A DNA stretch of 64,000 nucleotides from an uncultured Nocardioides sp. (GTDB lineage Bacteria > Actinomycetota > Actinomycetes > Propionibacteriales > Nocardioidaceae): the NCBI GenBank assembly GCA_964487275.1, contig CAZAQE010000028.1:262-64261 (forward strand), read 5' to 3'. The notes beneath the pieces are model-generated. The model was not told where the DNA came from, did not search any database, and saw only the letters and a list, made by a program, of their open reading frames with translations. Made by a program: the position numbers and the translations under genes. The stretch's first letter is position 1. Each line of letters starts with the position of its first letter. Positions 64 through 18,772 of this stretch are shown here, piece after piece.

Positions 64-729
64 TCAGCGGGACGAGGCGCCCTTGCGGGCCCGGTGGACC
101 TCCTCGACCAGCTGGTCGGCGGGCACGTCGAAGGCCGTGATCGGTACGACGAGAGGGTCCCGGCCGGCGCGGAGGTCGATCCGCACCCCCGCCGGGTTGC
201 GCTGCTGGACGCTCGCGCCCTTCACCTCGCGCCACGGCACCGTCACGGCGGTGTGGTAGCCGCGGTAGGCCAGCGCGTCCGGCCCCAGCTCGAGGGTCCA
301 GCGGTGCAGCCGGCCGCTGAGGAGGCGGACCAGGTCGGGCAGCGACGCCAGCGCGCCGACGATCGCCAGCAGCGCGAAGCCCGGCGACTCGAGGGCACCG
401 AAGTCCGTGGCCGCGAGCCAGGCCCAGAGCGCGGCCACGGCCAGCAGCGCCGCCCAGGCGACGAGCAGGCCCGCCACCGTTCCCAGGGGCGCCCGGAACG
501 CGCGGACGCCGTCGGTGGACACGACCGTCTCGCGGCGCCGGCGGGGCCGGACGAGCGCGGAGAGCGCCGTGACGAGGAGACCGGCGAACGCCACCAGCAG
601 GCCCGCCCCGGACCAGGCCAGGGCACCGTCGGCAACGGACGCCATGACCGCCCCGGCCAGCATCCCGACGAGGAGCAGCAGGAGCACGCTGGCCGTCCAC
701 CACCGCGGGATCAGCCGTTCCGGGCTCAC
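64..729 (-). CDS. polytopic membrane protein with soluble C-terminal PH-like domain; candidate immunity/partner of the upstream toxin-like gene
   Basis: Part of track ORF 64..783. GTG at 729 overlaps the TGA of the upstream gene (GTGA coupling). About four hydrophobic helices, then a ~70-aa soluble tail. Confidence 0.55.
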   Translation of the reverse strand: MSPERLIPRWWTASVLLLLLVGMLAGAVMASVADGALAWSGAGLLVAFAGLLVTALSALVRPRRRRETVVSTDGVRAFRAPLGTVAGLLVAWAALLAVAALWAWLAATDFGALESPGFALLAIVGALASLPDLVRLLSGRLHRWTLELGPDALAYRGYHTAVTVPWREVKGASVQQRNPAGVRIDLRAGRDPLVVPITAFDVPADQLVEEVHRARKGASSR

Positions 730-1832
730 CACGGCGTCACCGCGTCCCAGGCGTCGCCGATCGCGCCGGTCGCGTCGTCCCACCGGTCACCTGTCCAGTC
801 GGTGATGTCGTCCCAGTTGTCGTAGATCGTGCCGGCCAGCCACGAGCCGCCGGCAGCGAGCGCGCCTCCGGCCAGCACCACGGCCCACGCCGGGGCGGTG
901 ACCACACCGGCCGTGACCAGGAGACCGACCCCGACGCCCACGGCGATGCTGGTCCCGGTCGTGACCGCGACCCGCGTCCAGTCGCCGCTCTGCGTCCCCT
1001 CGTAGATGCCGAATCCGACGTCGATCAGGATGCCGGCCGGTCCACCGAAGAACCTGGCGCCCTTCCCGAACAGGTCGGCCTTGGTGAGCAGGTCGTCCAG
1101 CTGCGACTGGCCGGCGGGGGTCTTCAGCCGGTTGCGCACGGCCGGGTTGCCCGAGACGCGGGTCTTGCGGCGGAACTCCGCCGCGTCGGCCTTGTAGTCC
1201 TTGGCCTTGTTCAGGAGCGCCCAGCCGGCCAGGCCCGCCCCGGCGCCGCTGGCGAAGTTGGGGAACAGTGCGGCGATCGCCTCGAAGAGCGTGTCGGACG
1301 CGTCCTTCTTGCGGGCGTCCGCGACGTCGGCCGGCATGTTCGCGTCGACCCAGTCGACGAAGGTCTGGTAATCGCTCGCGGCGTCCTCCACGAGGGTGTT
1401 CCACAGCTCGATCCGCGCGACCGCCTCGTTGTACGCCGTCTCCTCCGGCGATCCCGCCTCGAAGGGGGTCGTCGGGGCGGCGGCGGGCTCCGAGATGACG
1501 GTGCCGGTGACGGTCAGGCCGCCCTCGGAGGCGCGGGCGCGGATCGACTTCATGTCGTCCTCGAGCCGCTTGAGCTTGGCGGCGTAGTCGTCGAGCGCCG
1601 TGGCCGCCCGCCCGACCCGCTCCTCGTGCTTGTCGCTGGCGCGCAGGATGTCGCCGGACACGTTGCGGTAGGAGGAGTAGGTCTCGCCCTCCCAGGAGTC
1701 CTGGGCGTAGTTGCGGGCGTCCTGCTGCTCGTCGCTGGCCTTGCCGACCTTGTCCTTGAGCGTGTCGCGCAGCCAATTGGCGGCGGCCGTGACCGCGTCC
1801 GGCGAGCCCTCGACCTTCGTGTCCAGGCTCAC
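726..1832 (-). CDS. WXG/LXG-like N-terminal helical domain fused to a glycine-zipper membrane C-terminus; putative T7SS-type secreted effector
   Basis: Track ORF of 368 aa. N-terminus is helical with a W-x-G motif (DSWEGETYSSY) and a coiled coil (AAKLKRLEDDMKSIRARA). C-terminus is GxxxG-rich and hydrophobic (GVGVGLLVTAGVV, LAGGALAAGGSWLAG), followed by a W/D-rich tail. Confidence 0.6.
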   Translation of the reverse strand: MSLDTKVEGSPDAVTAAANWLRDTLKDKVGKASDEQQDARNYAQDSWEGETYSSYRNVSGDILRASDKHEERVGRAATALDDYAAKLKRLEDDMKSIRARASEGGLTVTGTVISEPAAAPTTPFEAGSPEETAYNEAVARIELWNTLVEDAASDYQTFVDWVDANMPADVADARKKDASDTLFEAIAALFPNFASGAGAGLAGWALLNKAKDYKADAAEFRRKTRVSGNPAVRNRLKTPAGQSQLDDLLTKADLFGKGARFFGGPAGILIDVGFGIYEGTQSGDWTRVAVTTGTSIAVGVGVGLLVTAGVVTAPAWAVVLAGGALAAGGSWLAGTIYDNWDDITDWTGDRWDDATGAIGDAWDAVTPW

Positions 1833-2113
1833 GCGAGCCTGCCCATCCTGTCGAACTCCGCGGCGATCGCGGCCTCGGTGAGGCCGAGGTCGTCCGCACA
1901 GTCGCGGACGAGCTCGGCGATGCCGGTGTTGATCACCGCGATCTCGCCGGCCGTCTCGCTGACCGCGGCCAGGATGTTCGCGACGTGCTCAGCGCCGTAC
2001 CCCGCGTCGACCGTCTTCGGCGCCGTCGCGGCCGCCTCGTCGATCTTGCCTGCGGCGTCGTCGTGGCCGCCCGAGATCACGGCCGCCGCGCCGGCGTCCA
2101 GTCGCAGGGTCAC
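1829..2113 (-). CDS. small helical protein (94 aa), possible secretion helper
   Basis: In-frame GTG at 2113 overlaps the stop of the upstream gene. Its own TGA overlaps the GTG start of 726..1832. The N-terminal extension in the 135-aa track ORF is Arg-rich and looks non-coding. Confidence 0.5.
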   Translation of the reverse strand: MTLRLDAGAAAVISGGHDDAAGKIDEAAATAPKTVDAGYGAEHVANILAAVSETAGEIAVINTGIAELVRDCADDLGLTEAAIAAEFDRMGRLA

Positions 2114-2418
2114 GCCGGACCACCTGCTGGCTGAGCGGAGCGGACGTGCTCGGGGACCTCCACGTCGAGCAGCTTGAGGTCGAAGTGCTTGGCCTGCCTG
2201 ATGTCGTCGACCTTGCCGGTCTCGAACAGCAGCCACGCCTGGTCGTCTCCCCAGGCGTCGAGCAGCCGGTCCAGCGCCGTGTAGGCCACCAGCGCGATCC
2301 GGCCGTCACCGAGTCGCAGCATCCTGAAGTCGCTCACCGCGCCGTCGGGTCCGGTCTCGACCGGGAGGTAGACCACGGGTGGCACGGGGCGTTGCCTGGT
2401 CGGCTGCTGGTCGTTCAC
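2110..2418 (-). CDS. small SseB/SAV_915-like protein (102 aa)
   Basis: C-terminal part of track ORF 2110..2883, with GTG at 2418. Segment RIALVAYTALDRLLDAWGDDQAWLLFETGKV resembles small actinobacterial SseB-like proteins. First gene of a four-gene overlapping operon. Confidence 0.5.
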   Translation of the reverse strand: MNDQQPTRQRPVPPVVYLPVETGPDGAVSDFRMLRLGDGRIALVAYTALDRLLDAWGDDQAWLLFETGKVDDIRQAKHFDLKLLDVEVPEHVRSAQPAGGPA

Positions 2419-2494
2419 GACGGCGAGGCTACCCAGCCCCCGGCAGATCACACGGCGCCCGCACGACCGGATCGTCGCCGCTGGTTGGCGGGGC

Positions 2495-2527
2495 GGTCGC
2501 GCGCCGGTCGATCGCCGTTCGCCCGCC
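2495..2527 (+). promoter_or_regulatory. three tandem 11-nt direct repeats (GGTCGCGCGCC GGTCGATCGCC GTTCGCCCGCC); candidate PhoP PHO-box operator of phoD
   Basis: Exact 11-nt periodicity with a conserved G(G/T)TC head, 19 nt upstream of the phoD ATG. Confidence 0.3.
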
Positions 2528-2545
2528 CACGGTGGGCTGGTCGGC

Positions 2546-4114
2546 ATGATCTCGGCCACTCCGGAACCCACCTCACGCCGCACCCTGCTGCGCGGCGCCG
2601 TCCTGACCGCCGGTGCTGCGGCCGGCCTGCACGCGTCCCGCTCCTCGGCAGCCCCCCTCCTCGTGCGCCGCGACCGGCCGCTGCTGCCCCTGGGCGTGCA
2701 GTCCGGTGACGTCCGCGCGAGGTCCGCCGTGCTCTGGGCGAAGGCGGACCGGCCCGCCCGCCTGGTCGCCGAGGTCAGCCGCGACGCCTCCTTCCGGGGC
2801 GCCCGCAGGATCCCCGGCCCGGTCGTCACCCCGTCGACCGACCTCACCGGACGCTTCGAGCTGCGCGGGCTGCCGACGGGCACCGACCTCCACTACCGGA
2901 TCAGCGCCGTCGACCTGGACGACGACCGCGCCACGAGCGAGCCCACCGTCGGCCGTCTGCGCACGGCCCCGGGCCATGGCGACGACGTCCGCTTCCTGTG
3001 GTCCGGCGACATCGCCGGTCAGGGCTGGGGCGTGAACCCGGCGTACGGCGGCTTCCGGATCGCCGAGGCGATGCGCGCCCGCGACGCCGACTTCTTCCTC
3101 TGCAGCGGCGACAACGTGTACGCCGACGGACCGGTCCAGTCCTCCGTCGCGCTGCCGGACGGATCGACCTGGACCAACCTGGTCATCCCGGAGAAGACCA
3201 AGGTGGCCGAGACGCTGACGGAGTACCGCGGCCAGTACCGCTACAACCTGATGGCCGACAACTGGCGCGCCTTCCTCGCCGAGACGGCGCAGGTCGTGCA
3301 GTGGGACGACCACGAGGTGACGAACAACTGGTACCCCGGCGAGATCCTCGAGGACGCCCGCTACACCGAGAAGCGGGTCGACGTGCTCGCCGCCCGGGCC
3401 GCCCGGGCCTTCCACGAGTACACCCCGATCTCCGGCATCTCCCCGGACGCCGAGGGCCGCGTCTACCGGGTCCTCCCCTACGGCCCCCACCTCGACCTCT
3501 TCGTGCTCGACATGCGCACGCACAAGGACCCGAACACGGCGAACGACGAGACGACCACCGACGGCGGGGTGCTCGGCCGGCGCCAGACGGCGTGGCTGAT
3601 CGACGGCCTGCGCCGCTCGCGCGCCACCTGGAAGGTGATCGCCGCGGACCTGCCGCTCGGGCTCGTCGTACCGGACGGGATGTTCCAGGAGGGCCTCGCG
3701 CAGGGAGACCCCGGTGCCCCGCTGGGCCGTGAGGCCGACATCGCCGAGGTGCTCACCGCGCTGTCGCGGGCCGGGATCCGCAACCACGTGTGGCTGACCG
3801 CCGACGTCCACTACACGGCGGCCCACCACTACTCCCCCGACCGGGCGGCCTACCAGGACTTCGACCCGTTCTGGGAGTTCGTGTCGGGGCCGCTCAACGC
3901 GGGCGGCTTCGGGCCCAACCGCCTGGACGGCACCTTCGGTCCGGTCGCGGACTTCGTCGCCGCGCCGCCCGTCGCCAACGCGTCGCCGGCCGCCGGCCAC
4001 CAGTACTTCGGCGAGGTCGAGGTCGACGGCGCCACCGGCCGGCTGACCGTGACCCTGCGCGACGTCGAGGGCGCGGCGCTCTACACGCGGACGCTGGACC
4101 CGGCGGCCCGCTGA
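2546..4114 (+). CDS. phoD: alkaline phosphatase D family (PhoD), Tat-secreted
   Basis: 522-aa ORF. Twin-arginine signal TSRRTLLRGAVLTAGAAA. PhoD-like metallophosphatase motifs (FLWSGD, CSGDNVYADG, WDDHEV). Confidence 0.9.
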   Translation: MISATPEPTSRRTLLRGAVLTAGAAAGLHASRSSAAPLLVRRDRPLLPLGVQSGDVRARSAVLWAKADRPARLVAEVSRDASFRGARRIPGPVVTPSTDLTGRFELRGLPTGTDLHYRISAVDLDDDRATSEPTVGRLRTAPGHGDDVRFLWSGDIAGQGWGVNPAYGGFRIAEAMRARDADFFLCSGDNVYADGPVQSSVALPDGSTWTNLVIPEKTKVAETLTEYRGQYRYNLMADNWRAFLAETAQVVQWDDHEVTNNWYPGEILEDARYTEKRVDVLAARAARAFHEYTPISGISPDAEGRVYRVLPYGPHLDLFVLDMRTHKDPNTANDETTTDGGVLGRRQTAWLIDGLRRSRATWKVIAADLPLGLVVPDGMFQEGLAQGDPGAPLGREADIAEVLTALSRAGIRNHVWLTADVHYTAAHHYSPDRAAYQDFDPFWEFVSGPLNAGGFGPNRLDGTFGPVADFVAAPPVANASPAAGHQYFGEVEVDGATGRLTVTLRDVEGAALYTRTLDPAAR

Positions 4115-4136
4115 GCCTCGTGCACTACGCCATCAT

Positions 4137-5066
4137 GTGGGCGTGATTCCCACCCGGATCCCCCACGGCCGTACCGCCCGACGTGTCGAGTGGGCACACC
4201 TGCCGCCCGCCGTGCGCGACGCGGTGGAGACCCGACTGGGCGCACCGGTCGAGGAGGCGGTGTCACAGGGCGCCGGCTTCACACCGGGCTTCGCCTCGGT
4301 GCTCACCTGCACCGACGGCTCCCGGCACTTCGTGAAGGCCGCCTCGGTCCGCGCGCAGCGGATGTTCGCCGACTCCTACCGCGAGGAGGCCCGCAAGCTC
4401 GGCGCCCTGCCGCCCGGCACCCCGGCACCGCGGCTGCTGTGGACCGACGAGGTCGCCGACTGGTTCCTGCTCGGGATCGAGTACGTCGACGGACGGGCCC
4501 CGCTGCGCCCCTGGACCGACGCCGACCTGGGCGTCGCCTCGGCCATGGCCGTGGAGATGACCAGGTTGCTCACCCCCGCCCCGGCCGGCCTCGGCCGGGC
4601 CACCGAGGAGTTCGCGTCGTGGCCGGCGCTCTGGGACCGGCTGGACCACCCGCGGGCGGCGGAGATCGGGGCGCTGGCCGCCCGCTACGCCGAGGTCGTG
4701 GACGGCGACACGCTCGTGCACACCGACATCCGCGACGACAACATCCTCGTGCTGGCGGAGGGCCGCGCCGTGCTCTGCGACTGGAACTGGCCGGTCGTCG
4801 GCGCCGCCTGGCTCGACTCGCTGTTCCTGCTGATCGGCCCGCGCGGCGACGGCCTGGACGTCGAGGGGCACATCGCGGAGCACCCGCTGCTGTCCGGCGT
4901 CCCGACCGAGCACGTCGACGTCGTACTCGCGCTCGTGCTGGGCTACTTCGCCGCCTCGGCCAACGAGCCCGTCCCGCCGACCTCGCCGTACGTCCGGGCC
5001 GCGCAGGCGTGGCAGCGCGACGTGGTCGACCAGTGGCTGGCGCAGCGGCGTGGTTGGAGCGACTGA
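4137..5066 (+). CDS. aminoglycoside/choline-kinase-like phosphotransferase family protein
   Basis: 309-aa ORF with an APH-type catalytic loop HTDIRDDNIL and CDWNW. Confidence 0.75.
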   Translation: MGVIPTRIPHGRTARRVEWAHLPPAVRDAVETRLGAPVEEAVSQGAGFTPGFASVLTCTDGSRHFVKAASVRAQRMFADSYREEARKLGALPPGTPAPRLLWTDEVADWFLLGIEYVDGRAPLRPWTDADLGVASAMAVEMTRLLTPAPAGLGRATEEFASWPALWDRLDHPRAAEIGALAARYAEVVDGDTLVHTDIRDDNILVLAEGRAVLCDWNWPVVGAAWLDSLFLLIGPRGDGLDVEGHIAEHPLLSGVPTEHVDVVLALVLGYFAASANEPVPPTSPYVRAAQAWQRDVVDQWLAQRRGWSD

Positions 5067-5075
5067 GCCCTCCGC

Positions 5076-5561
5076 TCAGGCGCGGCCGATCGCCTCGGGG
5101 TCGATGACGACGAACTGCGGATCGTCGGGGTGCACGTGTACGTCGAGGATCGTGTCGACCTGGATCCGCGGGATCGCGAGCTGGGAGACCAGCTCGTCGA
5201 CCGTGACCCGGTAGGGCTCGCCGGTCTCCGGCGTCACCTCGAGGGTGAACACGACGTAGGGATCCTGGTTGAGGTGTCCGCGGACGCGCGCGTTCGCGAT
5301 CCGGGCCGTGGTCCGGATGCCGTCCTCCATCGCCCGGCGCCGGTGGGCGTTGCGGGCCCGGACCTGGCGGATCTTGAAGAAGGCGAAGACCGCCAGGCCG
5401 ACGCCGGCCACGGCGAAGGCGTAGCCGGCATAGGTGCCGGCGTGCTTGCCCCCGTCCCGGGTCGCGCCCATGACGACCAACGTCCAGAAGGCGATGGTCG
5501 GCACGATCATGATCACGCCGACGGGGAACTGCGGCTGTGAGGGGGGCGTCACGGCCGCCAT
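5076..5561 (-). CDS. hypothetical membrane protein (161 aa)
   Basis: Trimmed from track ORF 5076..5747 to the ATG at 5561 (MAAVTPPSQ...). Two N-terminal hydrophobic helices, then a soluble domain. Confidence 0.5.
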   Translation of the reverse strand: MAAVTPPSQPQFPVGVIMIVPTIAFWTLVVMGATRDGGKHAGTYAGYAFAVAGVGLAVFAFFKIRQVRARNAHRRRAMEDGIRTTARIANARVRGHLNQDPYVVFTLEVTPETGEPYRVTVDELVSQLAIPRIQVDTILDVHVHPDDPQFVVIDPEAIGRA

Positions 5562-5753
5562 CCCAGCAGGTCGGGGCCGTGCTGGCAACGATCCCGGCCG
5601 GTTGGCGATTTGGGACCACTGTTCGCCCGCTGTTAGCCTTGCTGGTCGCGTCTCCCGCGTGCCTGCGCCTGCCCTCGTCGGTCGGCCGGCTCCCGCGGAT
5701 CCGCGCTCCGGACCAGTCCAGACATCCACCCGAACACGTAGAGGCAATCACCC

Positions 5754-6014
5754 GTGGCGAACATCAAGAGCCAGATCAAGCGCAACAAGCAGAACGAGAA
5801 GCGCCACGAGCGCAACAAGGCCGTCAAGTCGGGCCTGAAGACCGCGATCCGCAAGTTCCGCGAGGCCGCCGAGGCCGGCGACAAGGACAGCGCGGTCGCG
5901 CTGGCCCAGGACGCCACGAAGAAGCTCGACAAGGCTGCTTCGAAGGGCGTCATCCACAAGAACCAGGCCGCGAACCGCAAGTCGTCGATCGCCAAGCAGG
6001 CCGCCTCTCTCTGA
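5754..6014 (+). CDS. rpsT: 30S ribosomal protein S20
   Basis: 86 aa, [26 protein letters not shown]..., a canonical S20 N-terminus. Confidence 0.97.
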
Positions 6015-6055
6015 GTTTCCCCTGCTCTGGCTCCGGTCCGGAGCCATCACGTCAA

Positions 6056-6083
6056 GGGAGTCCCCGAACGGGGGCTCCCTTTC
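6056..6083. terminator. hairpin plus T-tract between convergent rpsT and holA
   Basis: GGGAGTCCCC-GAAC-GGGGGCTCCC (10-bp stem with one G:U) followed by TTTCG. Confidence 0.55.
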
Positions 6084-6089
6084 GTGATA

Positions 6090-7061
6090 TCAGGAGCGAC
6101 GGAGCGCGGTGATGGTGAGCACCAGCCGCTCCAGCGCGTACGACGCGTCGCTGGCCGCGCCCTTGATGTCGGCGTCGGCCTGGGCGACCGCGCGGATCGC
6201 GCGGGACAGGCCCGCCTCCGACCAGCCGCGGGCCTGGTCGCGCAGCGAGCGCAGCTTCCACGGCGGCACACCCACCTCGCGAGCGAGGTCGGCATCGCGC
6301 ATCCCGCGCGGGGCGCTCACCAGCCGGGCCAGGCCGCGGGCGCTGCCCGCGAAGGCGGAGGTGATCAGCACGGCCGCAGTGCCGGCGTCGAGCGCCCAGC
6401 GGAGCTCCTCGAGCGCAACCTGGCCGCGCCCGGCGAACGCCGCGTCGGCGACCGCGAAGGACTTCGCCTCGGCGCGGCCACCGAAGTAGCGCTTGACTTG
6501 GGACTCCCCGATCCGCTCCCCCGGGAAGTCGTTGGCGAGCTGGCTCGCCGCACCGGCCAGTGAGCGCAGGTCGCGACCGATCGCCTCGATGAGGACGTCG
6601 GCGGCGTCGCGGTCGAGCGTGGCGCCGTGGCGTCGTACCTCGTTGGCGACGAAGGCGGGGAAGTCGGAGGGCTTCAGCTCCTCGGACTTGTGCTCCGTGA
6701 CGGGCGGGAGCTTGCGGAGCTTGGTGAGCACCCCGCTGCCCTTCTGCCCTCCGCCGTGGACCAGGACGAGGGCGACGTCGTCGGCCGGGGCACCGGCGTA
6801 GGCGAGGAGGCCGTCGACGGACTCGTCGGGCAGGTTCTCCAGGCCGCGGACGACGACGCAGCGCACGGCCGAGAACAGCGACGGGGCCGCCATCTCGCCG
6901 AGCGAGGCGAGCGTGAGGTCGGCCGCCGCGGCGTCGGAGAACTCTGCCTCGGCGTCGTGCTCACGCACGGCGGCCTTGACGTCGTCGACGGTGCGGGCGC
7001 CGAGGAACTCCTCCTTGCCGGTGACCAGGATGACCCGTCCCAACACGTCAGCGGCCCGCAT
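6090..7061 (-). CDS. holA: DNA polymerase III subunit delta
   Basis: Track ORF 6090..7097 trimmed to the ATG at 7061 (MRAADVLGRVILVTGKEEFL). Length, composition and position downstream of comEC are typical of actinobacterial holA. Confidence 0.88.
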   Translation of the reverse strand: MRAADVLGRVILVTGKEEFLGARTVDDVKAAVREHDAEAEFSDAAAADLTLASLGEMAAPSLFSAVRCVVVRGLENLPDESVDGLLAYAGAPADDVALVLVHGGGQKGSGVLTKLRKLPPVTEHKSEELKPSDFPAFVANEVRRHGATLDRDAADVLIEAIGRDLRSLAGAASQLANDFPGERIGESQVKRYFGGRAEAKSFAVADAAFAGRGQVALEELRWALDAGTAAVLITSAFAGSARGLARLVSAPRGMRDADLAREVGVPPWKLRSLRDQARGWSEAGLSRAIRAVAQADADIKGAASDASYALERLVLTITALRRS

Positions 7062-7106
7062 GGGAGACACCTTCCCACACGCTCCCGACACGAGCACCGG
7101 CGGCGG

Positions 7107-8696
7107 TCACCGGGCCACGACCCTCGGTCCGGCTCCCCCGGCGACGACCGCGACATCGCCCTCCTCGTCGGTCCGGTGCACCTCGGCGCCGGCAGCACGG
7201 AGGCCGTCGAGCAGGTCGGGTGCCGGGTGGCCGTAGTCGTTGTCGGCACCCACCGACACCAGCGCGAGCTCCGGGCGCAGCGAGGTGAGCCAGCGCTCGT
7301 CCTGGTGACGGCTGCCATGGTGGGGCACCTTGAGGACGTCGACGTCGAGGCCCGGGAGCAAGCGGGCGAGTTCGGCCTGGCCGGGTGGCTCGATGTCGCC
7401 GGTGAGGAGCAGCCGGAGCCCGGCGACGTCGACCACGAGCACCACGCTGGCATCGTTGGCGGAGCTGCCGTCGCCCGCCCCCGGCACCGGCACGGGGACG
7501 TCCGGGTGCACGACCTGGATCGTGGCCGTGCCGACCCTGCGGGTCGCGCCGTACGACGCCCTCCGCACCGGCACCCCCGCCCGGGCCGCCACTTCGCGGA
7601 CCTCGTCCACCGCCGCCGGCGGGTCCAGCACCGAGGTCACCTCGACGGCACCGACGCGGCGTCCACGCACCACCCCGGCCAGGCCGTCGACGTGGTCGGC
7701 GTGGAAGTGGGTCAGCACGACGAGCGGGACCTGCTCGACACCGAGCCGGTCGAGACAGCCGTCGACGGCCTCCGGATCGGGGCCCGCGTCGACCACGACC
7801 GCGGCTCCCGGACCGACCGACACCGCGAGCGCGTCGCCCTGCCCGACGTCGCAGGCCACCAGCACCCAGCCCGCCGGCGGCCACCCGAAGGAAGGCGTCG
7901 ACCAGATCCGGCCCGGCACCCCCAGGACGACCAGCAGGAGCAGCACCGCGAGCGAGACACCCCACGCCCGGTGGCGCACGATCCGGGGCAGGACGACGGC
8001 GACCGCGACGCAGAGCCCGACGAGCAGCAGCACGGCCAGCGGCCCGGTACCCCATGCGACCGCCGCTCCGGGCAGGTCCGCACCACGCTCGGCGACCGCG
8101 ATGATCCACGCGACGCACCACGCCGCGCCGGTGCCGACCACCCGGCCGGCAGCCGGGAGCACCAGCCCGACCAGCCCGCCGAGCAGGCCGAGCACGGTCG
8201 CCGGTCCGACCGCCGGACCCGCGAGGAGGTTGGCCAGCACCGCGACCAGGCTGACCTGGCCCGACAGCACCGCCACGACCGGCGTGCAGGCCAGCTGCGC
8301 GGCCGTCGGCACCGCCACCGCCTCGGCGAGGCCGCGGGGCATCCACCGGGAGAGCGCCTCGGCCAAGGGCGGGCCCAGCAGCACGATCCCTCCGGTCGCG
8401 AGGACCGAGAGCGCGAAGCCGGCCGACGTGGCGAGCGCGGGATCGACCAGCACCAGCACGACCAGCGCGACACCGAGCGCCCGCAGGCCGCGACGGCGCC
8501 CGTCCGGCCCGAAGGCGAACAGCCCGACCGTGCCCATCGCCGCCGCTCGCAGCACGCTCGGCTCCGTGCGGGCGAGCAGGACGAACCCGATGATCCCGGC
8601 GAGGCCGACGAGCACCAGCCAGCGGCCGCGGACGCCGACCGCCCGGGCAGCCAGCAGCAGGGCCCCGACGACGAGGGTCAGGTTGGTGCCGGACAC
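7107..8696 (-). CDS. comEC: ComEC/Rec2 3' fragment (competence membrane domain plus metallo-beta-lactamase domain), separated from its 5' part by the insertion
   Basis: 529 aa with many TM helices and MBL motif THFHADHVDG...VPHHGS. The frame stays open upstream to 8720 (CGLTHLTAVSGTNL), so the GTG at 8696 is only a nominal start. Confidence 0.9.
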   Translation of the reverse strand: MSGTNLTLVVGALLLAARAVGVRGRWLVLVGLAGIIGFVLLARTEPSVLRAAAMGTVGLFAFGPDGRRRGLRALGVALVVLVLVDPALATSAGFALSVLATGGIVLLGPPLAEALSRWMPRGLAEAVAVPTAAQLACTPVVAVLSGQVSLVAVLANLLAGPAVGPATVLGLLGGLVGLVLPAAGRVVGTGAAWCVAWIIAVAERGADLPGAAVAWGTGPLAVLLLVGLCVAVAVVLPRIVRHRAWGVSLAVLLLLVVLGVPGRIWSTPSFGWPPAGWVLVACDVGQGDALAVSVGPGAAVVVDAGPDPEAVDGCLDRLGVEQVPLVVLTHFHADHVDGLAGVVRGRRVGAVEVTSVLDPPAAVDEVREVAARAGVPVRRASYGATRRVGTATIQVVHPDVPVPVPGAGDGSSANDASVVLVVDVAGLRLLLTGDIEPPGQAELARLLPGLDVDVLKVPHHGSRHQDERWLTSLRPELALVSVGADNDYGHPAPDLLDGLRAAGAEVHRTDEEGDVAVVAGGAGPRVVAR

Positions 8697-8699
8697 CGC

Positions 8700-8724
8700 C
8701 GTCAGGTGGGTCAGACCGCACTAG
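8700..8724. repeat. attL junction: shared core TGGGTCAG (8707..8714) plus element-side half-site CGCACTAG (8717..8724)
   Basis: The core is identical to 22381..22388. The half-site is the reverse complement of CTAGTGCG at 22365..22372. Confidence 0.75.
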
Positions 8725-8742
8725 AAGGCAACAACCACTACG

Positions 8743-10206
8743 ATGCTAAACGTGACCGAGGCCCTTGCGCGGGAGTACCTGCGAGTAAGTACCGACAAGA
8801 GTGGCCGCGGCGCGTCTGTCGCTCAGCAACACGACGAGAATCAGCGTGCCGCCGAGAGCCGCGGTTGGCGCCTGCTGCCGCCCTATAGCGAGCCTGAGGC
8901 GGTCTCGGCGTCGCGTTACTCCCGCAAGGCCCGTGAGGCGTTTGGCGACTTGCTCGAGGACATTGAATCAGGGTCGTTCGGGGCCGACGTCCTCGTTCTG
9001 TGGGAGGCGTCGCGGGGTTCCCGTCGCACGGGCGAGTGGGTCGACCTGATCGACGTCTGCGCCAGTCGCGACGTAAGGATTCACGTCACCTCCCACGGTC
9101 GGACCTACGACCCGACGAACCCCCGCGACCGCCGGACCCTTCTCGAGGACGCCGTTGATAGTGAGTACGAGTCCGCAAAACTCAGCGGCCGAGTCAGTCG
9201 CGCACTCGCCGCCAACGCGAGTGCTGGCCGTCCGCACGGGCAGATCCCCTACGGATACCGCCGCGTGTACGACGATCGCTCCGGTGCGCTGATCCGCCAG
9301 GAGCCCGATCCGGCAACCGCGCCGAACATTGCCGAGTTGTTCGCCCGCGTCCGTGCCGGCGACTCATTGCGCAGCATCGAGCGGGACTGGGCTGCGCGGG
9401 GCATCGTGAACAAGTCCGGTCGCCCCTTCGGTTCTGCGCACCTTCGCTCACTACTCGACGTTCGGGCCTACGCCGGTGACCGAGTGCACGGGAACCAAGT
9501 GCATGCCGGCGACTGGGAGCCCATCGTCGAGCGCGACACTTGGCAAGCCGTGCGAGCGATCCTCAGCGACCCGGCCCGGCGGACCAACCGGCCGGGCCGC
9601 GGCATCTACAAGGTGTCCATGATCGCCCGCTGCGGCGTCTGCGAAGGCCCGATGGCGGGAGACGCCAAAGTCGACGGACGCCGCCGAACCGAGCCCGTTT
9701 ACAGATGCCGCAACAACCACGTCACAGTTCCCCTCGCCAGCCTGGACCAACATGTCGAAGAAGTCGTCAGCGCGTACCTATCCCGCCCCGAAATCCGGAC
9801 GGCACTGTCAGCCGCCGCGGTGGAAAGCGGCGAGCTCCAAGCAGCACGGAACCGCGTGGCGAGACTCAAGGGCGAGTTAGACGACCTCTACGAGCGTGGC
9901 GCAAGCGGACAGATCTCGCCGGCAGGCGTGGCAGCGATGGAACCGGGCCTCCTAGGCCGCCTGAGCGGCGCTCAGGCCGACCTCGAGGCGCTACAGACCC
10001 CGAGTGCGCTCGTCGGCATCCTCGGCCGCGAGAGCGGTTCTGGAACGTCGCTGGGGGACCTGACCGTCGAGCGTCTTCGCGCAATCTACGACCTTGTCTG
10101 CACCCCTGACCTCCTCGGAGTTCCGCACGTCAACAGGTCATCCCGACGAGGGCCGAAACAACCCCCGGTTCGCGACCGAGTCGAGTGGCGACGCAGCTCG
10201 GACTGA
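8743..10206 (+). CDS. large serine recombinase (phage-type serine integrase)
   Basis: 487 aa. Resolvase catalytic N-domain (YLRVSTDKSG, VLVLWEASRGSRR), recombinase domain, zinc ribbon (CGVCEGPM...YRCRNNH) and a C-terminal coiled coil. Starts about 20 bp from the attL core. Confidence 0.95.
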   Translation: MLNVTEALAREYLRVSTDKSGRGASVAQQHDENQRAAESRGWRLLPPYSEPEAVSASRYSRKAREAFGDLLEDIESGSFGADVLVLWEASRGSRRTGEWVDLIDVCASRDVRIHVTSHGRTYDPTNPRDRRTLLEDAVDSEYESAKLSGRVSRALAANASAGRPHGQIPYGYRRVYDDRSGALIRQEPDPATAPNIAELFARVRAGDSLRSIERDWAARGIVNKSGRPFGSAHLRSLLDVRAYAGDRVHGNQVHAGDWEPIVERDTWQAVRAILSDPARRTNRPGRGIYKVSMIARCGVCEGPMAGDAKVDGRRRTEPVYRCRNNHVTVPLASLDQHVEEVVSAYLSRPEIRTALSAAAVESGELQAARNRVARLKGELDDLYERGASGQISPAGVAAMEPGLLGRLSGAQADLEALQTPSALVGILGRESGSGTSLGDLTVERLRAIYDLVCTPDLLGVPHVNRSSRRGPKQPPVRDRVEWRRSSD

Positions 10207-10600
10207 CGAGGCCAGGAGAACAAGATCCTCGCCATCCACAGCAAGATCTACTCGAAGTACAACAGCCAGCAGCCGGCCCAACCACCAACTCGATTAAGCG
10301 GCGCCAGTGGGCGTGTTCTGAGTGCGAATCGTGGCGGCGCCGCGCCTGCTAGATGCGCCTTTACGGGCACGCGTAGGTGCGCCCTGGGGACGAACGGGCC
10401 TCGTATGCAACACGCGCGTTAGTACGATTTTCCATGGAGGCGCCGGAAGATTCCGGCAAGGCTCCGCGCGCGGTTGGAAGAGCCGTCAGGACTGACCAGA
10501 CTGTCACCGCGCCGAGGGTTACAACCCGGTCGACTTGTCCCGGTCCCCTTGGAAAGACGCGACCGACCAGCCCCCACCCACAGACATTCACCTTCGCGAT

Positions 10601-10640
10601 CCGGGGGCGGTCACTTCCGCCAAGAAACTCCCGCCCCCGG
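10601..10640 (+). promoter_or_regulatory. 10-bp-stem hairpin CCGGGGGCGG-N20-CCGCCCCCGG just upstream of the first rightward gene
   Basis: Perfect inverted repeat read from the sequence. It lies within the 466-bp non-coding gap after int. Confidence 0.3.
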
Positions 10641-10671
10641 CTCGCTCCGTCCACTCCAAAGGAGCGACCTG

Positions 10672-10881
10672 ATGACAGTAGCCCCTTCTGCAACCCTCGA
10701 CCGAACTCGGCCGCGCTGGGCAGGCCCCACGGCCGCGGGCCGGTACATCGGCGTCACGGATCGCACGATCCGTAACTACATCGCGCGCGGACTCCTAACC
10801 GCCTATCACCTTCCCGGCTCAAACCATGTGCGGGTCGATCTGAACGAGATCGACGCCCTCATGGGAGCCGAGCGTGACTGA
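10672..10881 (+). CDS. excisionase-family HTH DNA-binding protein (69 aa)
   Basis: ATG at 10672 preceded by AAAGGAG. Segment YIGVTDRTIRNYIARGLLTAYHLPGSNHVRVDLNEID fits the MerR/Xis-type HTH_17 pattern. Confidence 0.7.
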   Translation: MTVAPSATLDRTRPRWAGPTAAGRYIGVTDRTIRNYIARGLLTAYHLPGSNHVRVDLNEIDALMGAERD

Positions 10882-11020
10882 GGCCGAGGCGAATCGGAGG
10901 CATGCCGCCTCAGTAGCCATGAGCGCTCCCGCTCCGTCGATGGATCAGCTCGAGCGGTTGGCGCGACTCCTGCGACCGACCGAGCCCTCCCCTGCCCTCT
11001 TGACTAGTGAGGCCGCGTGA
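10874..11020 (+). CDS. possible small ORF (48 aa)
   Basis: GTG overlaps the end of the previous gene. Its TGA overlaps the next start (GTGATG). Below the track threshold and has no recognisable domain. Confidence 0.3.
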   Translation: MTEAEANRRHAASVAMSAPAPSMDQLERLARLLRPTEPSPALLTSEAA

Positions 11021-11238
11021 TGAAGCGCCTCACTGTCGCCACTGTCACTCCCGCGCTCGACGTCTGGAACGGGTACGGCAGCCGCGACCTGCTCGAGCAG
11101 CACCGCGGCCGGCCTCCGGTCTGGTCGTCGAACCCCCGCGGCTGGGTCGCTCAGCCGGCCAACCGTGCTGACCTCATCGCCCTCGCCGAGCTCCGTGGAT
11201 TCGACGTGCGGGTCGAGGAAGCCGAGGTGGTCCGGTGA
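11020..11238 (+). CDS. hypothetical protein (72 aa)
   Basis: Track ORF 11017..11238 (GTG 11017 or ATG 11020). Stop overlaps the next start (GTGA). Confidence 0.5.
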   Translation: MKRLTVATVTPALDVWNGYGSRDLLEQHRGRPPVWSSNPRGWVAQPANRADLIALAELRGFDVRVEEAEVVR

Positions 11239-11504
11239 CCGATCCAGACCGCTTCTTCCGCGATCTGATGGCCGACTGCATGGCCGACGCGCTCGCTCAC
11301 CAGTGGCGAGAACGAGCCGACGTCATCAGAGCTGCTCGACCAAGGGAAGGCGATTACCTGGGGCAGAGCACAGTCGACGACCAGCGGGCACGGTGGCACC
11401 GCATGACCGCGATGGCCGCCGCTTGCGACGCCAAGGCCACCGTTGTCGCACGCGTGATGTTCCCGGAGATCGAGGACTTCCCCTTTTGGGAGGAGGCCGC
11501 GTGA
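11235..11504 (+). CDS. hypothetical protein (89 aa)
   Basis: Track ORF with overlapping GTGA junctions on both sides. Confidence 0.5.
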   Translation: MTDPDRFFRDLMADCMADALAHQWRERADVIRAARPREGDYLGQSTVDDQRARWHRMTAMAAACDAKATVVARVMFPEIEDFPFWEEAA

Positions 11505-12055
11505 GGGACCGCCAGAAGAAGATCGACTTCGAGCTAGACGAGTTCTCAGCCCACCGCAACGAGCACTGGAACGACAAGGCGGCCAACCCCCGGCACCCGC
11601 TCGCCCTCCGGGTCTACTTCGCCGCCCTCGGCCATCGTCGAGTCGGTGGCCACGCACCCTTCACGACGGGCGAGCTGGCCGAGTTGCTGGTGAACACCGA
11701 CGCGGTGATCCCGGACCGTCGCCGGGTGGCCGAGGCGATCCGGCAGTGCGTCCAGTGGGGCTACCTGGCGGAAGGCAGCAACGCCCTGTGTCTGGTGGTT
11801 CCGCTCGACGACGTCCAGGGCGGTCGGGGGCAGGAGTACCGCTGCCGCCGCAGCCACAGCAAGCGCGCAGCACAGGCCCATGCTGACGGCTGCGACTGCC
11901 CCCGCTGCTCACATGTGTCCGTGCCCAAACGGACACATGCCCCCGAAGTGTCCGTGCTCAACGTGGACACATTGCCCCTAGGTGTCCGCTTCCAGCCGGA
12001 CACCTCAAGCGGTGGCTCTCTCTTCTCTCTACCAACCCACGAGGAATCCGCATGA
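11501..12055 (+). CDS. hypothetical protein with a probable winged-helix DNA-binding domain (184 aa)
   Basis: Trimmed from track ORF 11165..12055 to the GTG at 11501, which is coupled to the previous stop. Segment FTTGELAELLVNTDAVIPDRRRVAEAIRQCVQWGYLAEG looks like a wHTH. C-terminus has CDCPRC. Confidence 0.5.
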   Translation: MRDRQKKIDFELDEFSAHRNEHWNDKAANPRHPLALRVYFAALGHRRVGGHAPFTTGELAELLVNTDAVIPDRRRVAEAIRQCVQWGYLAEGSNALCLVVPLDDVQGGRGQEYRCRRSHSKRAAQAHADGCDCPRCSHVSVPKRTHAPEVSVLNVDTLPLGVRFQPDTSSGGSLFSLPTHEESA

Positions 12056-12159
12056 GCGTCCAAATCCAATCCTGCGAACACCCGGCCGACGACCCGCGCT
12101 GGACCTGTTCCGCCTGCATCACCCACCTCGCCGCCGACCTCGACGGGAGTGACCGATGA
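12052..12159 (+). CDS. possible Cys-rich mini-protein (35 aa)
   Basis: ATG at 12052 overlaps the previous TGA, and its stop overlaps the next ATG. Sequence MSVQIQSCEHPADDPRWTCSACITH.... Confidence 0.35.
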   Translation: MSVQIQSCEHPADDPRWTCSACITHLAADLDGSDR

Positions 12160-12509
12160 ACGTCATCGGCGTCGAACACCTCACCCTCGAAACCCGAGAC
12201 CCCATCCAGCCGACGCTCGCCCGTTACGGCTTCGACCTCGGCCACCAGCACATCGGCCGCGACGACGTCTCCGTAGCCGTGTTCCGTGCCTCTGAATGCT
12301 TGGGGCTGGCGTCCCAGCCGCCCGCGTGGTTCGGCGTCGAGGAGCAGCCCGAGGACGCTGCTGCCTACTACTGGTGCGCCACCCCAGACAGCGACGACCG
12401 GCCTGCCGGTGCCCCGCTGCACGTCTCGACCACCGTGCCCTACCTCGAGCCCCGCTACGGCGACTCCTGGATCGCTTTCGTCGTCGAGATCCCCGAGACA
12501 GAGGAGTAG
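12156..12509 (+). CDS. hypothetical protein (117 aa)
   Basis: Track ORF, translationally coupled to the upstream mini-ORF. Confidence 0.5.
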   Translation: MNVIGVEHLTLETRDPIQPTLARYGFDLGHQHIGRDDVSVAVFRASECLGLASQPPAWFGVEEQPEDAAAYYWCATPDSDDRPAGAPLHVSTTVPYLEPRYGDSWIAFVVEIPETEE

Positions 12510-12513
12510 GCCC

Positions 12514-12831
12514 GTGCTCAGCAGCGAACAGCCTCGCCTCGCCCCCGACGACCTCGACCGCGCCAAGGATGCGTTCAACCACAGCCCCGCCTGTCAGGGC
12601 ACCGTCTGGGCCAGCTACGTCAACCGACTCGGCTCCCCGATGCTCCGATGCCGCGGCTGCGAACGTATCGTCCCCGTCGCCCGGCTCCTCGATCAGCTCA
12701 GGGAAGTCCCTCTCCGGCGCTACGTGATGCCCTGCATCCGCTGCGACCAGGACATCCGGCTCTACCGACCCAAGCCCCGCATCCCGCTGCACGAGAGCTG
12801 TGCTCGTAGGCGGCGCCAGGAGGGCCGCTGA
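12514..12831 (+). CDS. zinc-ribbon-like Cys-rich protein (105 aa)
   Basis: Trimmed from track ORF 12286..12831 to the in-frame GTG at 12514. Paired CxxC motifs (CRGC ... CIRC). Confidence 0.45.
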   Translation: MLSSEQPRLAPDDLDRAKDAFNHSPACQGTVWASYVNRLGSPMLRCRGCERIVPVARLLDQLREVPLRRYVMPCIRCDQDIRLYRPKPRIPLHESCARRRRQEGR

Positions 12832-12832
12832 G

Positions 12833-13219
12833 GTGCGATGGACGTTCCTGGCCGACGGGACGCCGTGCGTCGTCCTTGCGGCCGATGACAGCCTCTCCGA
12901 GCTTGTTGCGCTTGTCGACAGGACCGACCGCGCCACCGCCTACGCAGGCCGTCTCCCGTCGCCTGCGGCCGGACAGTTCGTGCGCCTTGGGCGGCACGTT
13001 CTCGCGGTTGCCGCACTGGTTCCGCAGCGGGAACCAACCACCGCGTCAGGGGCCTCCGGATCGGCACGATGGATCACAACGAAGGAAGCCGCAGACATCC
13101 TGCGAGTCACCGAGCGAGCCGTGCGCAAACGCATCGCCAACGGGTCACTCACGGCCCAAATGCTCGGCGGTCGCTGGCTCATAGACCTCAAGGAGATCCC
13201 CAATGCTGCAGCCGCATAA
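12833..13219 (+). CDS. protein with C-terminal excisionase-type HTH (128 aa)
   Basis: GTG at 12833 lies 9 nt after AGGAGG (the track start at 12800 is also possible). C-terminus WITTKEAADILRVTERAVRKRIANGSLTAQMLGGRWLIDLKEI. Confidence 0.6.
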   Translation: MRWTFLADGTPCVVLAADDSLSELVALVDRTDRATAYAGRLPSPAAGQFVRLGRHVLAVAALVPQREPTTASGASGSARWITTKEAADILRVTERAVRKRIANGSLTAQMLGGRWLIDLKEIPNAAAA

Positions 13220-13979
13220 CCCGCTTCTCGACACCTACCGCACCCTGAGCGGCAACGTGGTCGAGCTCGGCCGGGGCCTGTTCCCCGAGTTCACCTTTGC
13301 GAACGACGGCACCCCGGACTACATCCGCCGCGCCAAGAACGAGTGGCAGTTCATCCCGCGGCAGCTCAAGGTCATCGACGACACCCTCACGGAGCTTGGC
13401 GAGACGGTCGTCCAGATCAGTTTCGACGGCCGGCTCAGCGCACAGGCGAAGGCCGACGACCTCGCTTCGGCCACCGCCTCGATCAAGGCCAAGATCGACG
13501 CGGCGACAAGCGATGTCAGCACTCGTGCGGCGCATGTTCTCGACATCATGAAGACCGCGGCCTATCCCGCCCGCCCCGGCACCCCGGACGCGGCGCAGGA
13601 GGCCCGCATTGCAGGGATCAAGGCAGACCTACGGATGGTCTGGGACGTGCTCGAGTCCGACGAGGAGTTCGTCCCGGCGATCACCGAGTCACTCCGTCGT
13701 GCGATCGGTGACGGAGACGACCTCCAGTCCTGGCTCATCGCGTCAACGAGGTGGCCCGAGGACTACCTCCGCGCTCGAGGGGCCGAGTACCGGATCCGTC
13801 AGCTCCAGAGCGACCTCGCCTCAACTCTCGACGCCCACACGCCAGCCAACCTCGCCGAAGCACGACGCATCTACGCCGTCCTCGCAGACGGACGCCACGG
13901 ACTGCCGCTGCTCACGGTCCTGTTCGACCACCTCGACGGCATTGTCGACGACCTCGCCGCATGGCGGGGCGCCGCCTGA
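13203..13979 (+). CDS. hypothetical protein (258 aa), largest unassigned ORF of the element
   Basis: ATG lies 7 nt after AGGAG. Acidic and helical. No motif recognised. Confidence 0.55.
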   Translation: MLQPHNPLLDTYRTLSGNVVELGRGLFPEFTFANDGTPDYIRRAKNEWQFIPRQLKVIDDTLTELGETVVQISFDGRLSAQAKADDLASATASIKAKIDAATSDVSTRAAHVLDIMKTAAYPARPGTPDAAQEARIAGIKADLRMVWDVLESDEEFVPAITESLRRAIGDGDDLQSWLIASTRWPEDYLRARGAEYRIRQLQSDLASTLDAHTPANLAEARRIYAVLADGRHGLPLLTVLFDHLDGIVDDLAAWRGAA

Positions 13980-14107
13980 TGGACGGGGCATGCCGATCCT
14001 GCGAAGCGACCGAGTGCCCGACCGGCTGCGTGCGGCTCATCCAAGCCGACCGCCACGTCTGCGGGGCCAAGTGCTGCGACGACTGCACCCACACCCCTGG
14101 GGGGTGA
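13979..14107 (+). CDS. Cys-rich mini-protein (42 aa, 9 Cys)
   Basis: ATG overlaps the previous TGA (TGATG). Sequence MDGACRSCEATECPTGCVRLIQADRHVCGAKCCDDCTHTPGG. Confidence 0.4.
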   Translation: MDGACRSCEATECPTGCVRLIQADRHVCGAKCCDDCTHTPGG

Positions 14108-14203
14108 CTCCCCTCGGACCCCGAATCGAGGACTGTGGGTGAGGGCGCTCCGAGGTGCGGCACGCATTCTCGCTCGTTTTCCGATGACCATGAAGGAGGC
14201 CCT

Positions 14204-14671: not shown

Positions 14672-14832
14672 GGCGCCGTGAGAAGCAGCCCCCTCCGGAG
14701 CCTGAGCCGCCAGCGGAGGAGCGACAGTCGGACGTCCGCGACCGATTTCCCGTCCACTGCTCTGAGTGCGGCGCCGGCCCGCTCCCGCGTCCGTGGCGCG
14801 GAGGTGCGCGATGCCCGAACCACGCCCGCTAG
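14668..14832 (+). CDS. possible zinc-ribbon mini-protein (54 aa)
   Basis: ATG overlaps the TerS stop (ATGA). Sequence ...FPVHCSECGAGPLPRPWRGGARCPNHAR. Below the track threshold. Confidence 0.35.
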   Translation: MRRREKQPPPEPEPPAEERQSDVRDRFPVHCSECGAGPLPRPWRGGARCPNHAR

Positions 14833-18706: not shown

Positions 18707-18713
18707 GATTCCC

Positions 18714-18729: not shown

Positions 18730-18772
18730 CTGTTGGCTATGATCAATAAGTCATATGACAAGGAGGTGTGAC

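Follow-up and report, generated by a model that had tools for sequence, protein, structure and literature searches.

In a 64,000-nucleotide stretch of contig CAZAQE010000028.1 from an uncultured Nocardioides sp. (the window), four overlapping minus-strand genes at positions 64 to 2418, designated g1 to g4 in 5'-to-3' order, were found to form a conserved cassette that is likely a substrate-type module of a type VII secretion system (T7SS) of the actinobacterial T7SSa kind. More narrowly, and with slightly less than even confidence on our part, g3 may encode a T7SSa-exported, membrane-inserting effector and g4 its cognate membrane partner, probably immunity-like. A toxin/immunity role for this pair is a plausible hypothesis.

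The original prediction, made from the same DNA, had given the positions of the four genes and their overlaps. Both were confirmed from the sequence, with GTGA at each of the three junctions:

Positions 2418..2110, minus strand: g1, 102 amino acids, GTG start; SAV_915/SseB-like small protein, predicted peptide-binding chaperone.
Positions 2113..1829, minus strand: g2, 94 amino acids, GTG start; helical partner, EspC/PE-like.
Positions 1832..726, minus strand: g3, 368 amino acids, GTG start; WXG100/PPE-like N-terminus and hydrophobic hairpin C-terminus.
Positions 729..64, minus strand: g4, 221 amino acids, GTG start; protein with four transmembrane (TM) segments and a probable bacterial PH domain.

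Across g1 to g4, the GC content at third codon positions (GC3) was 0.88 to 0.96 versus 0.43 to 0.55 at second positions (GC2), a pattern typical of real genes in a sequence of 72% GC, and the four were therefore regarded as genuine genes. Public gene calls differ in placing the start of g1 at GTG 2385 (91 amino acids) and that of g4 at 732 (222 amino acids), and the first 11 residues of the 102-residue version of g1 are not conserved; the annotated starts of these two genes are therefore provisional. Moreover, a 676-nucleotide contig from a soil metatranscriptome spans positions 1721 to 2396, across the g1/g2 and g2/g3 overlaps, which is consistent with a single transcript over the junctions of g1, g2, and g3, carry-over of DNA being possible.

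Homologues of g1, g2, and g4 flank a full-length g3 relative in all 26 related loci (Nocardioides/Propionibacteriales), in the same order and with the 4-nucleotide overlaps largely kept. Such recurrence far exceeds chance, indicating that the cassette is a genuine unit. The homologues of g3 and g4 come nearly all from Nocardioides and related Propionibacteriales, and very distant cassettes (20 to 36% identity) were detected in a Mycobacteroides-labelled genome, a metagenome-assembled genome (MAG) of the Pseudonocardiaceae, and a metagenome contig, with proteins of ~105 to 120, 92 to 94, 385 to 434, and 210 to 290 amino acids for g1 to g4, respectively. The g3 family has at least 1,189 representatives (clusters at 50% identity) at an E value of ≤1e-3, including 708 at ≤1e-10, and nearly all members are 350 to 430 amino acids long and match end to end. 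Swapping of C-terminal domains was considered and rejected, because the few N-terminal-only matches were frameshifted calls or divergent full-length members. Matches to the PHROG collection were dismissed as compositional, since they involved only Gly-rich hydrophobic stretches of tape-measure proteins. g2, g3, and g4 belong to no curated family, and no functional literature on them was found.

The chromosomal site of the cassette between PhoD and LepA genes is common to the four closest relatives only, and a second site is common to nine other loci. At least eight chromosomal contexts were observed overall, including tuf/trmB, rpmB, clpB/dnaK, and, once, a restriction/DISARM-like island. As sites are shared within clades while at least eight contexts occur overall, the module is stable within clades yet relocates as a block. 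In addition, some genomes hold two cassette copies, as in two MAGs with the locus pairs L015 and L024, and L022 and L028.

Features resembling type VII secretion substrates

The following parts were delimited within g3 and g2:

Positions 1311..1832, minus strand: g3 residues 1 to 174, WXG100/PPE-like N-terminal domain, assigned by AlphaFold, Foldseek, and family-level Pfam matches.
Positions 1686..1694, minus strand: codons of W47-E48-G49 in g3 (WxG turn), read from the sequence.
Positions 1047..1310, minus strand: g3 residues 175 to 262, with helices 179 to 189, 193 to 226, and 239 to 263 extending the soluble bundle in the AlphaFold model.
Positions 825..1046, minus strand: g3 residues 263 to 336, an amphipathic lead-in (…DVGFGIYEGTQSGDW) and a Gly/Ala-zipper hydrophobic hairpin, a putative membrane-inserting/pore-forming module.
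Positions 729..824, minus strand: g3 residues 337 to 368, an acidic Trp-rich tail (YDNWDDITDWTGDRWDDATGAIGDAWDAVTPW) with a net charge of -8 and five Trp.
Positions 1874..1888, minus strand: g2 residues 76 to 80 (L-G-L-T-E), the position of the YxxxD/E export motif, degenerate with Tyr replaced by Leu.

An AlphaFold model of g3 built on a 146-sequence alignment revealed a long helical bundle, with a predicted local distance difference test score (pLDDT) mostly above 90 for residues 1 to 260 and of 70 to 95 over residues 175 to 262; a first run with 16 sequences (pLDDT 56) and its Foldseek search had given nothing informative. In the N-terminal domain, helices 11 to 46 and 50 to 103 are joined by W47-E-G49, the motif already noted in the original prediction, whose W47 and G49 hardly vary, with conservation in at least 90% of the 146 family sequences. 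This domain also comprises helix 129 to 174 and a beta element in which residues 2 to 4 pair with 112 to 114, while the following residues 175 to 262 have a computed net charge of +6. The best Foldseek matches of the model included PPE41 (probability 0.97), PPE15, and PPE4, all of them PPE subunits of PE-PPE-EspG complexes, together with the EsxA structures 3zbh_H and 2vs0_B at template modelling scores of 0.82 to 0.86 (target-normalised) and a root-mean-square deviation of 1.9 Å.

Pfam searches with 16 g3 members pointed to the same group, all below cut-off: 9 members matched WXG100 (best E value, 2.5e-5), 4 matched PPE, 4 matched T7SS_signal, and 2 matched WXG100_2, the curated models of the WXG100 group being PF06013, PF00823, and PF25547. 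The g3 of the window itself had no WXG100/PPE-group or T7SS_signal match at an E value of ≤1. LXG (PF04740) was not among the Pfam families listed for the window's g3 at an E value of ≤1, nor among the 25 listed of the 29 families for the 16 members at an E value of ≤10. Thus, of the WXG100/LXG-like N-terminus put forward earlier, the WXG100 part was borne out by family matches and fold, within a wider WXG100/PPE group, and the LXG part was not. Judging from sequence matches and the model, the g3 N-terminus is of the actinobacterial T7SSa (PE/PPE-EsxAB) kind rather than LXG, given the PPE/EsxA-like fold and the lack of LXG, Lap, DUF443, or PADLOC matches. One frameshifted g3 relative matches "Hydrolase N-terminal helical domain".

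The gene g2 lies directly upstream of g3 in every locus examined. The Pfam family T7SS_ESX_EspC was matched below threshold by 6 of 14 g2 members (best E value, 0.0046), and the small open reading frame (ORF) equivalent to g2 at a locus of a g3 paralogue matches EspC, likewise below threshold, and WXG100. The column of the YxxxD/E motif reads YRTLD, YETAE, and YQNGE in the g2 of distant cassettes, the canonical form occurring in loci L005, L032, L041, and L042; at paralogue loci it is mostly FxxxD, with YGDTD and FAGTD among the variants, and in the window's own clade it is L/M/I-xxx-D/E, so that the acidic residue is kept.

The first gene, g1, precedes g2 in all four-gene cassettes, including the very distant ones. 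It matched the NCBIfam model SAV_915 (NF042914, SAV915_dom) at 55.4 bits (cut-off, 40) over the whole 58 positions, and 9 of 14 g1 family members matched Pfam SseB (best E value, 2.4e-4). SseB-type domains are predicted to be peptide-binding chaperones (PMC9503650); a literature search on SAV_915 found no functional report. No EspG-like gene occurs in the cassette, whose sole extra soluble protein is the SAV_915/SseB-type g1. The two small upstream proteins had been taken for helpers of the kind that LXG toxins need; this idea holds insofar as g2 is EspC-like and g1 is a predicted chaperone, and fails for Lap-type partners, as neither protein matched the Lap families (DUF3130/DUF3958) in Pfam/NCBIfam searches.

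Concerning the secretion machinery, neither an EccC/EccD homologue nor a large multi-P-loop ORF was present in the 64-kb window, in line with the earlier remark that it lacks ESX/T7SS core genes. The link to a T7SS comes from divergent paralogues of the g3 family in two genomes (loci L030 and L035), which share the hairpin and an acidic tail of the form "YDHWDDITD…". There, the paralogue lies 1.5 kb downstream of eccC (1,369 amino acids; FtsK/SpoIIIE, E value of 9e-79) and a divergently oriented eccD (YukD and EccD domains), with two small esx-sized genes between eccC/eccD and the paralogue. Moreover, EccCa is widespread in Nocardioidaceae, and in two named Nocardioides species, small esx-like genes come after eccD-eccC. 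For the source genome, the T7SS evidence is at the level of the lineage (Nocardioidaceae and the paralogue-bearing genomes).

Other genes were observed at T7SS loci of this lineage. In two Nocardioides loci, L043 (positions 5833 to 9711) and L044 (positions 14155 to 17801), eccC is followed by three small genes of 101 to 129 amino acids, and then by a 678-amino-acid Abhydrolase_8 (DUF1023) protein and an LppA-like gene in L043 or an 822-amino-acid protein without a Pfam match in L044. These genes are candidates for locus-encoded T7SS cargo of a different kind. The T7SS locus with a g3 paralogue in L035 also encodes, at positions 935 to 2215 on the minus strand, a 426-amino-acid MinD/ParA/ArsA-type protein with the deviant Walker A motif KGGVGTT, reminiscent of the EspI-type ATPase of ESX-1.

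Putative membrane module and membrane partner

The Gly-rich hydrophobic segments that had been seen in the C-terminus of g3 were recovered by hydropathy analysis as two Gly/Ala-rich spans, at residues ~288 to 310 and ~315 to 336. The resulting hairpin is rich in small-xxx-small motifs, contains an invariant Pro314 in a turn of 3 to 4 residues, and meets the tail at a "YDNWDDI" junction. Among 15 orthologous cassettes, the hairpin (residues 263 to 336) and the tail (residues 337 to 368) were the most conserved parts of g3, the tail being the best-conserved segment; example identities were 85% for the hairpin and 88% for the tail versus 71% for the N-terminal and 69% for the middle region. The expectation of a polymorphic membrane toxin resembling TspA was not borne out, given this pattern, the fixed architecture of the family, and the single copy of g4. 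The number of repeats in the tail varies among orthologues, while its last residue is aromatic throughout the family, and no stretch of g3 is better conserved than the extreme C-terminus, …DAWDAVTPW. An aromatic residue is likewise the last one of the EccC-binding signal of EsxB. The g3 tail might serve as a recognition signal instead of belonging to the membrane module.

The hairpin is acidic on either side, its flanks having net charges of -3 and -8. Under the positive-inside rule, acidic flanks are expected to remain outside the cytoplasm, and the hairpin would therefore insert from the outer face of a membrane.

A profile made from the last 150 residues of 16 diverse g3 members was searched against the PDB, and its four top matches were all channel-forming bacteriocins, namely, pyocin S5 with its channel domain (E value, 4.9e-6) and, after it, the colicins E1 (0.026), A (0.074), and S4 (0.089), with alignments covering the pre-hairpin helix, a "TGDW" motif, and the hairpin. 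The same sequences in reversed form had a best E value of 0.04, to unrelated proteins and with zero bacteriocins among its matches; hence, the pyocin S5 match stands well above the compositional background, and the colicin matches individually do not. The GDW motif is limited to the Nocardioides branch, and colicins were absent from the Foldseek matches of the g3 model. Taken as sequence similarity, these results suggest a local and possibly homologous likeness of the g3 C-terminus to the hairpin core of pore-forming bacteriocins, not membership in that group.

The protein encoded downstream, g4, had been described as a four-TM protein with a PH-like tail, and this description fits: hydropathy analysis gave four hydrophobic spans within residues 1 to 136, followed by a probable PH domain at residues 137 to 221. 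With a loop of charge +5 between TM2 and TM3, the PH domain is predicted to face the cytoplasm. The match of the window's g4 to Pfam bPH_6 was weak (16.1 bits, below the cut-off of 22), and bPH_6 was matched by 6 of 14 g4 members (best E value, 1.6e-4); one homologue has a precomputed PF10756 match, and relatives are named "PH domain-containing" or "DUF5673" in the sources. No match to DUF443 was obtained with the window's g4 or with family members.

In total, 122 g4 homologues track g3 one-to-one in the same taxa, with one g4 per cassette. g4 diverges faster than g3 among the 15 orthologous cassettes, and in distant cassettes and at the T7SS-embedded paralogues, the fourth gene encodes other membrane proteins without detectable similarity to g4. 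Strict company with g3, faster evolution, and replacement by unrelated membrane proteins in distant cassettes are frequent traits of immunity genes, and we regard g4 as a candidate immunity protein or partner of g3. The idea that the T7SS-embedded paralogues have a PH-like partner as well was considered and dropped, since the 228-amino-acid membrane protein encoded downstream of them has neither a PH match nor similarity to g4.

Interpretation of the cassette

In the effector reading that we prefer, g1 to g4 would be a translationally coupled and self-contained operon for T7SSa cargo, with the ESX-4-like machinery encoded at another place in the genome. g2 would pair with the first ~175 residues of g3 in a PE/PPE-like helical heterodimer whose bipartite signal consists of WxG in g3 and [Y/F/L]xxx[D/E] in g2, and g1 would serve as a cytoplasmic chaperone of this complex or of the hydrophobic C-terminus, in a role like that of EspG for PE/PPE pairs or of Lap/DUF4176-type proteins for LXG toxins. 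The g2-g3 complex would then be exported by the ESX-4-like T7SSa, after which the hairpin module of g3 would enter a membrane from outside and perturb or permeabilise it, while g4 would guard the producer's own membrane.

Several observations weigh against this reading. No Pfam or NCBIfam model reached its curated cut-off on the window's g2, g3, or g4, and every Foldseek E value for the g3 model exceeded 0.3. T7SS core genes are missing not just from the window but also within 10 kb of any four-gene cassette, and the window's g2 has Leu at the position of the Tyr that the export motif needs. Regarding the membrane module, Pfam Colicin (PF01024) was unmatched among the 16 g3 members; hhalign against six plasmid-derived colicin channel domains gave 39% with the full-length profile and 4% with the C-terminal profile, over ~60 columns; and AlphaFold returned helices with a pLDDT below 50 for g3 residues 271 to 368 and no confident 10-helix bundle. 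On account of the hhalign values and the unconfident hairpin, full colicin-domain homology was set aside, and local similarity alone was retained. The toxin part of the reading is further weakened by the strongest conservation within g3 falling on the hairpin and tail, by a single fixed architecture among the best 150 of the 1,189 family representatives, and by the absence of tandem or orphan g4 copies among the 122 homologues and the loci examined.

The fixed architecture of a very large family, the strongest purifying selection on the g3 hairpin and tail, the one-to-one pairing of g3 and g4 without arrays or orphans, and the clade-stable position would also fit a non-toxic, self-acting envelope module. 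Here, g3 would be membrane-anchored, or exported by the T7SS and re-inserted, in a stable complex with g4 and with g1 and g2 as assembly partners; a T7SS-associated envelope component, a conduit, and a membrane-homeostasis factor are possible roles. The paralogues inside T7SS loci, which lie between esx-like and other conserved locus genes, look component-like in this sense. We nevertheless consider such a module rather unlikely, as the cassette moves as a unit among its chromosomal contexts with no fixed "core" position, and the replacement of the fourth gene by unrelated proteins in distant cassettes would be odd for an obligate structural partner. Moreover, the acidic flanks of the hairpin speak against ordinary insertion from the cytoplasmic side, and its local similarity is to bacteriocin channel domains.

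A membrane-acting module independent of any T7SS, e.g., an abortive-infection or stress-triggered pore former kept inactive by cytoplasmic g1 and g2 and by membrane-located g4, with the WXG-like domain serving for interaction or regulation only, seems improbable to us. It would accord with the position of the four-gene cassette, always apart from T7SS genes, with the loss of the export-motif Tyr from the window's g2, with the single distant cassette located amid an MmeI-type restriction enzyme, a Schlafen/AlbA_2 protein, and a DISARM-like gene set, and with the SseB domains noted in conflict systems (PMC9503650). However, PADLOC returned no match for any of g1 to g4, so that a known anti-phage defence system was rejected; the defence-island context was seen once, the other contexts consisting of housekeeping genes; paralogues are physically linked to eccC/eccD; and the WxG and the acidic residue at the motif position are conserved. 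Read literally, the original prediction would make the cassette a locus for a polymorphic LXG toxin that acts on membranes like TspA or TelE, aided by two Lap-like helpers and paired with a cognate immunity protein; this reading now has very little probability left. Its appeal lay in an analogous layout (small helical partners, a helical N-terminus, a Gly-rich hydrophobic C-terminus, and a downstream membrane protein), and TspA has also been modelled as colicin-like (PMC7456083). Against it stand the absence of LXG, DUF3130/DUF3958, and DUF443 matches in the searches described above, the actinobacterial host with T7SSa-type EccC/EccD in its lineage, the PPE/EsxA fold, and, unlike in TspA/TsaI, a C-terminus that is not polymorphic and an immunity gene that is not multiplied.

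Comparison with known systems places the effector reading more precisely. As in the PE/PPE pairs with EspG, which are T7SSa substrates of mycobacteria, and in EspC/EspA-type pairs, a helical partner of ~95 amino acids is encoded directly upstream of a larger WxG protein (N-terminal ~175 residues). Further points in common with the PE/PPE-EspG arrangement are the best structural matches (PPE41/PPE15/PPE4), the motif at the YxxxD/E position of the small partner, the availability of a separate small protein as a chaperone, and substrates encoded away from the secretion locus. In contrast, the presumptive chaperone of the cassette is an SseB/SAV_915 domain of ~100 amino acids and not EspG, the motif Tyr has become Leu in the window's clade, g3 is extended by the membrane hairpin and the acidic Trp-rich tail and is followed by a dedicated membrane protein gene, the Nocardioides host is a monoderm without a mycomembrane, and Pfam PPE and EspC scores are below threshold. 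The toxins annotated as "putative T7SS-secreted protein" through T7SS_signal (PF21725) share with g3 an EspC-like gene upstream and sub-threshold matches in several members, covering up to 168 of 241 profile positions. Proteins with T7SS_signal generally carry variable enzymatic toxin domains, whereas a single, invariant membrane module is found throughout the g3 family. Pore-forming colicins and pyocin S5, which have immunity proteins with 3 to 4 TM segments, resemble the cassette in the local profile similarity over the hairpin region and in the adjacent small polytopic membrane protein, but their delivery domains are entirely different, and g4, which is co-directional with g3 and carries the PH domain, lacks homology to Cai/Cei/Cki. 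Finally, TspA of Staphylococcus aureus (T7SSb) has an LXG domain, is membrane-depolarising with a highly polymorphic toxin domain, and is followed by several DUF443 tsaI copies (PMC7456083). Its helical T7SS-targeting N-terminus, its membrane-active C-terminus resembling colicins, and the polytopic membrane protein encoded downstream have predicted counterparts in the cassette; the cassette differs by its PPE/WXG100-like domain, its most-conserved C-terminus, and its single-copy g4 with four TM segments and a bPH domain.

T7SS-delivered antibacterial toxins are well documented in Bacillota (PMC7456083, PMC13460014); much less is established about the cargo of the ancestral ESX-4-like T7SSa in non-mycobacterial Actinobacteria and the purpose of its export. 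The cassette defines a big uncharacterised family with a testable architecture, consisting of a chaperone, a PE/EspC-like partner, a PPE/WXG-like carrier with a conserved hairpin, and a membrane partner. Systems in which a T7SS substrate is accompanied by partners, a chaperone, and a membrane partner are already known. New are the predicted replacement of EspG by an SseB/SAV_915 chaperone, a membrane module that is conserved and not polymorphic, a bPH-type membrane partner, and the presence of such a cassette in environmental actinobacteria that are monoderm, at a distance from the secretion locus. It is possible, but in our view doubtful, that the cassette is the first example of a very large, conserved family of effectors in environmental Actinobacteria that are exported by T7SSa, insert into membranes, and are not polymorphic, with an SseB-type protein replacing EspG as the chaperone and a PH-domain membrane protein acting as the guard.

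If g3 is exported and membrane-active, the cassette would be a tractable system in which to study how T7SSa cargo is recognised, with a chaperone other than EspG and a motif lacking Tyr, and how a T7SS mediates membrane attack or insertion in soil bacteria. A conserved effector family would provide either the first antibacterial pore former ascribed to an ESX-4-like system or a translocon-like protein planted in a neighbouring or own membrane, and with either form, the ancestral T7SS of actinobacteria other than mycobacteria would gain a concrete function. A self-acting envelope complex would assign a role to three families currently called "hypothetical".

Surroundings and related loci

The operon lies between a divergent gene for a PhoD-type phosphodiesterase (positions 2546 to 4114, plus strand) and lepA, with rpsT and holA nearby. 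One further feature was delimited upstream of g1:

Positions 2419..2545, no strand assigned: intergenic region from which g1 and the PhoD-type phosphodiesterase gene diverge, presumed operon promoter region by position only.

A promoter/terminator scan of the operon yielded nothing exceeding shuffled sequences, a sigma-70-type consensus was not found in the equivalent stretch of locus L001, and the metatranscriptome contig stops at 2396, short of this region. Positions 1 to 2700 of the window were found identical in a 2019 wastewater metagenome (depth, ~288), with 7 differences in an isolate-sized run (depth, ~135), and as ~99% identical RNA contigs in a soil metatranscriptome, suggesting that the strain or its close kin is widespread.

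Some related loci contain additional genes. In L020, a second, divergent pair of g2-like and g3-like genes (positions 13639 to 14954, minus strand) lies ~2 kb downstream of the main cassette on the opposite strand, which indicates that paralogous modules can cluster. In L024 (positions 7349 to 9343), an ORF of ~575 to 660 amino acids upstream of the cassette carries an extra g1-like (SAV_915) domain towards its N-terminus, and the g1, g3, and g4 of this cassette appear to be split by frameshifts. At least one member of the g3 family is located in a defence island: in L041 (positions 3292 to 20667), the distant cassette lies between a restriction-modification enzyme of the MmeI/Eco57I type, a Schlafen AlbA_2/HATPase protein, and a DISARM-like set comprising a helicase, an MZB/DUF1998 protein, a PLD protein, and an N6-methyltransferase. 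Two S8 peptidase genes that follow the cassette of N. zeae were considered as possible mycosins, and this idea was rejected because their products look like secreted enzymes (N-terminal signal and propeptide-like regions, with a long C-terminal extension in one) and are absent from the other loci.

Elsewhere in the window, a large serine recombinase with Resolvase and Recombinase domains is encoded at positions 8743 to 10206 on the plus strand and borders a stretch of lower GC content (0.63 to 0.68 versus ~0.72) that reaches ~22.3 kb. The ORFs inside this stretch, including one of 937 amino acids at positions 15193 to 18006, had no Pfam match, and the region at positions 8743 to 22300 is probably an integrated mobile element or a prophage-like island next to the comEC/holA region.

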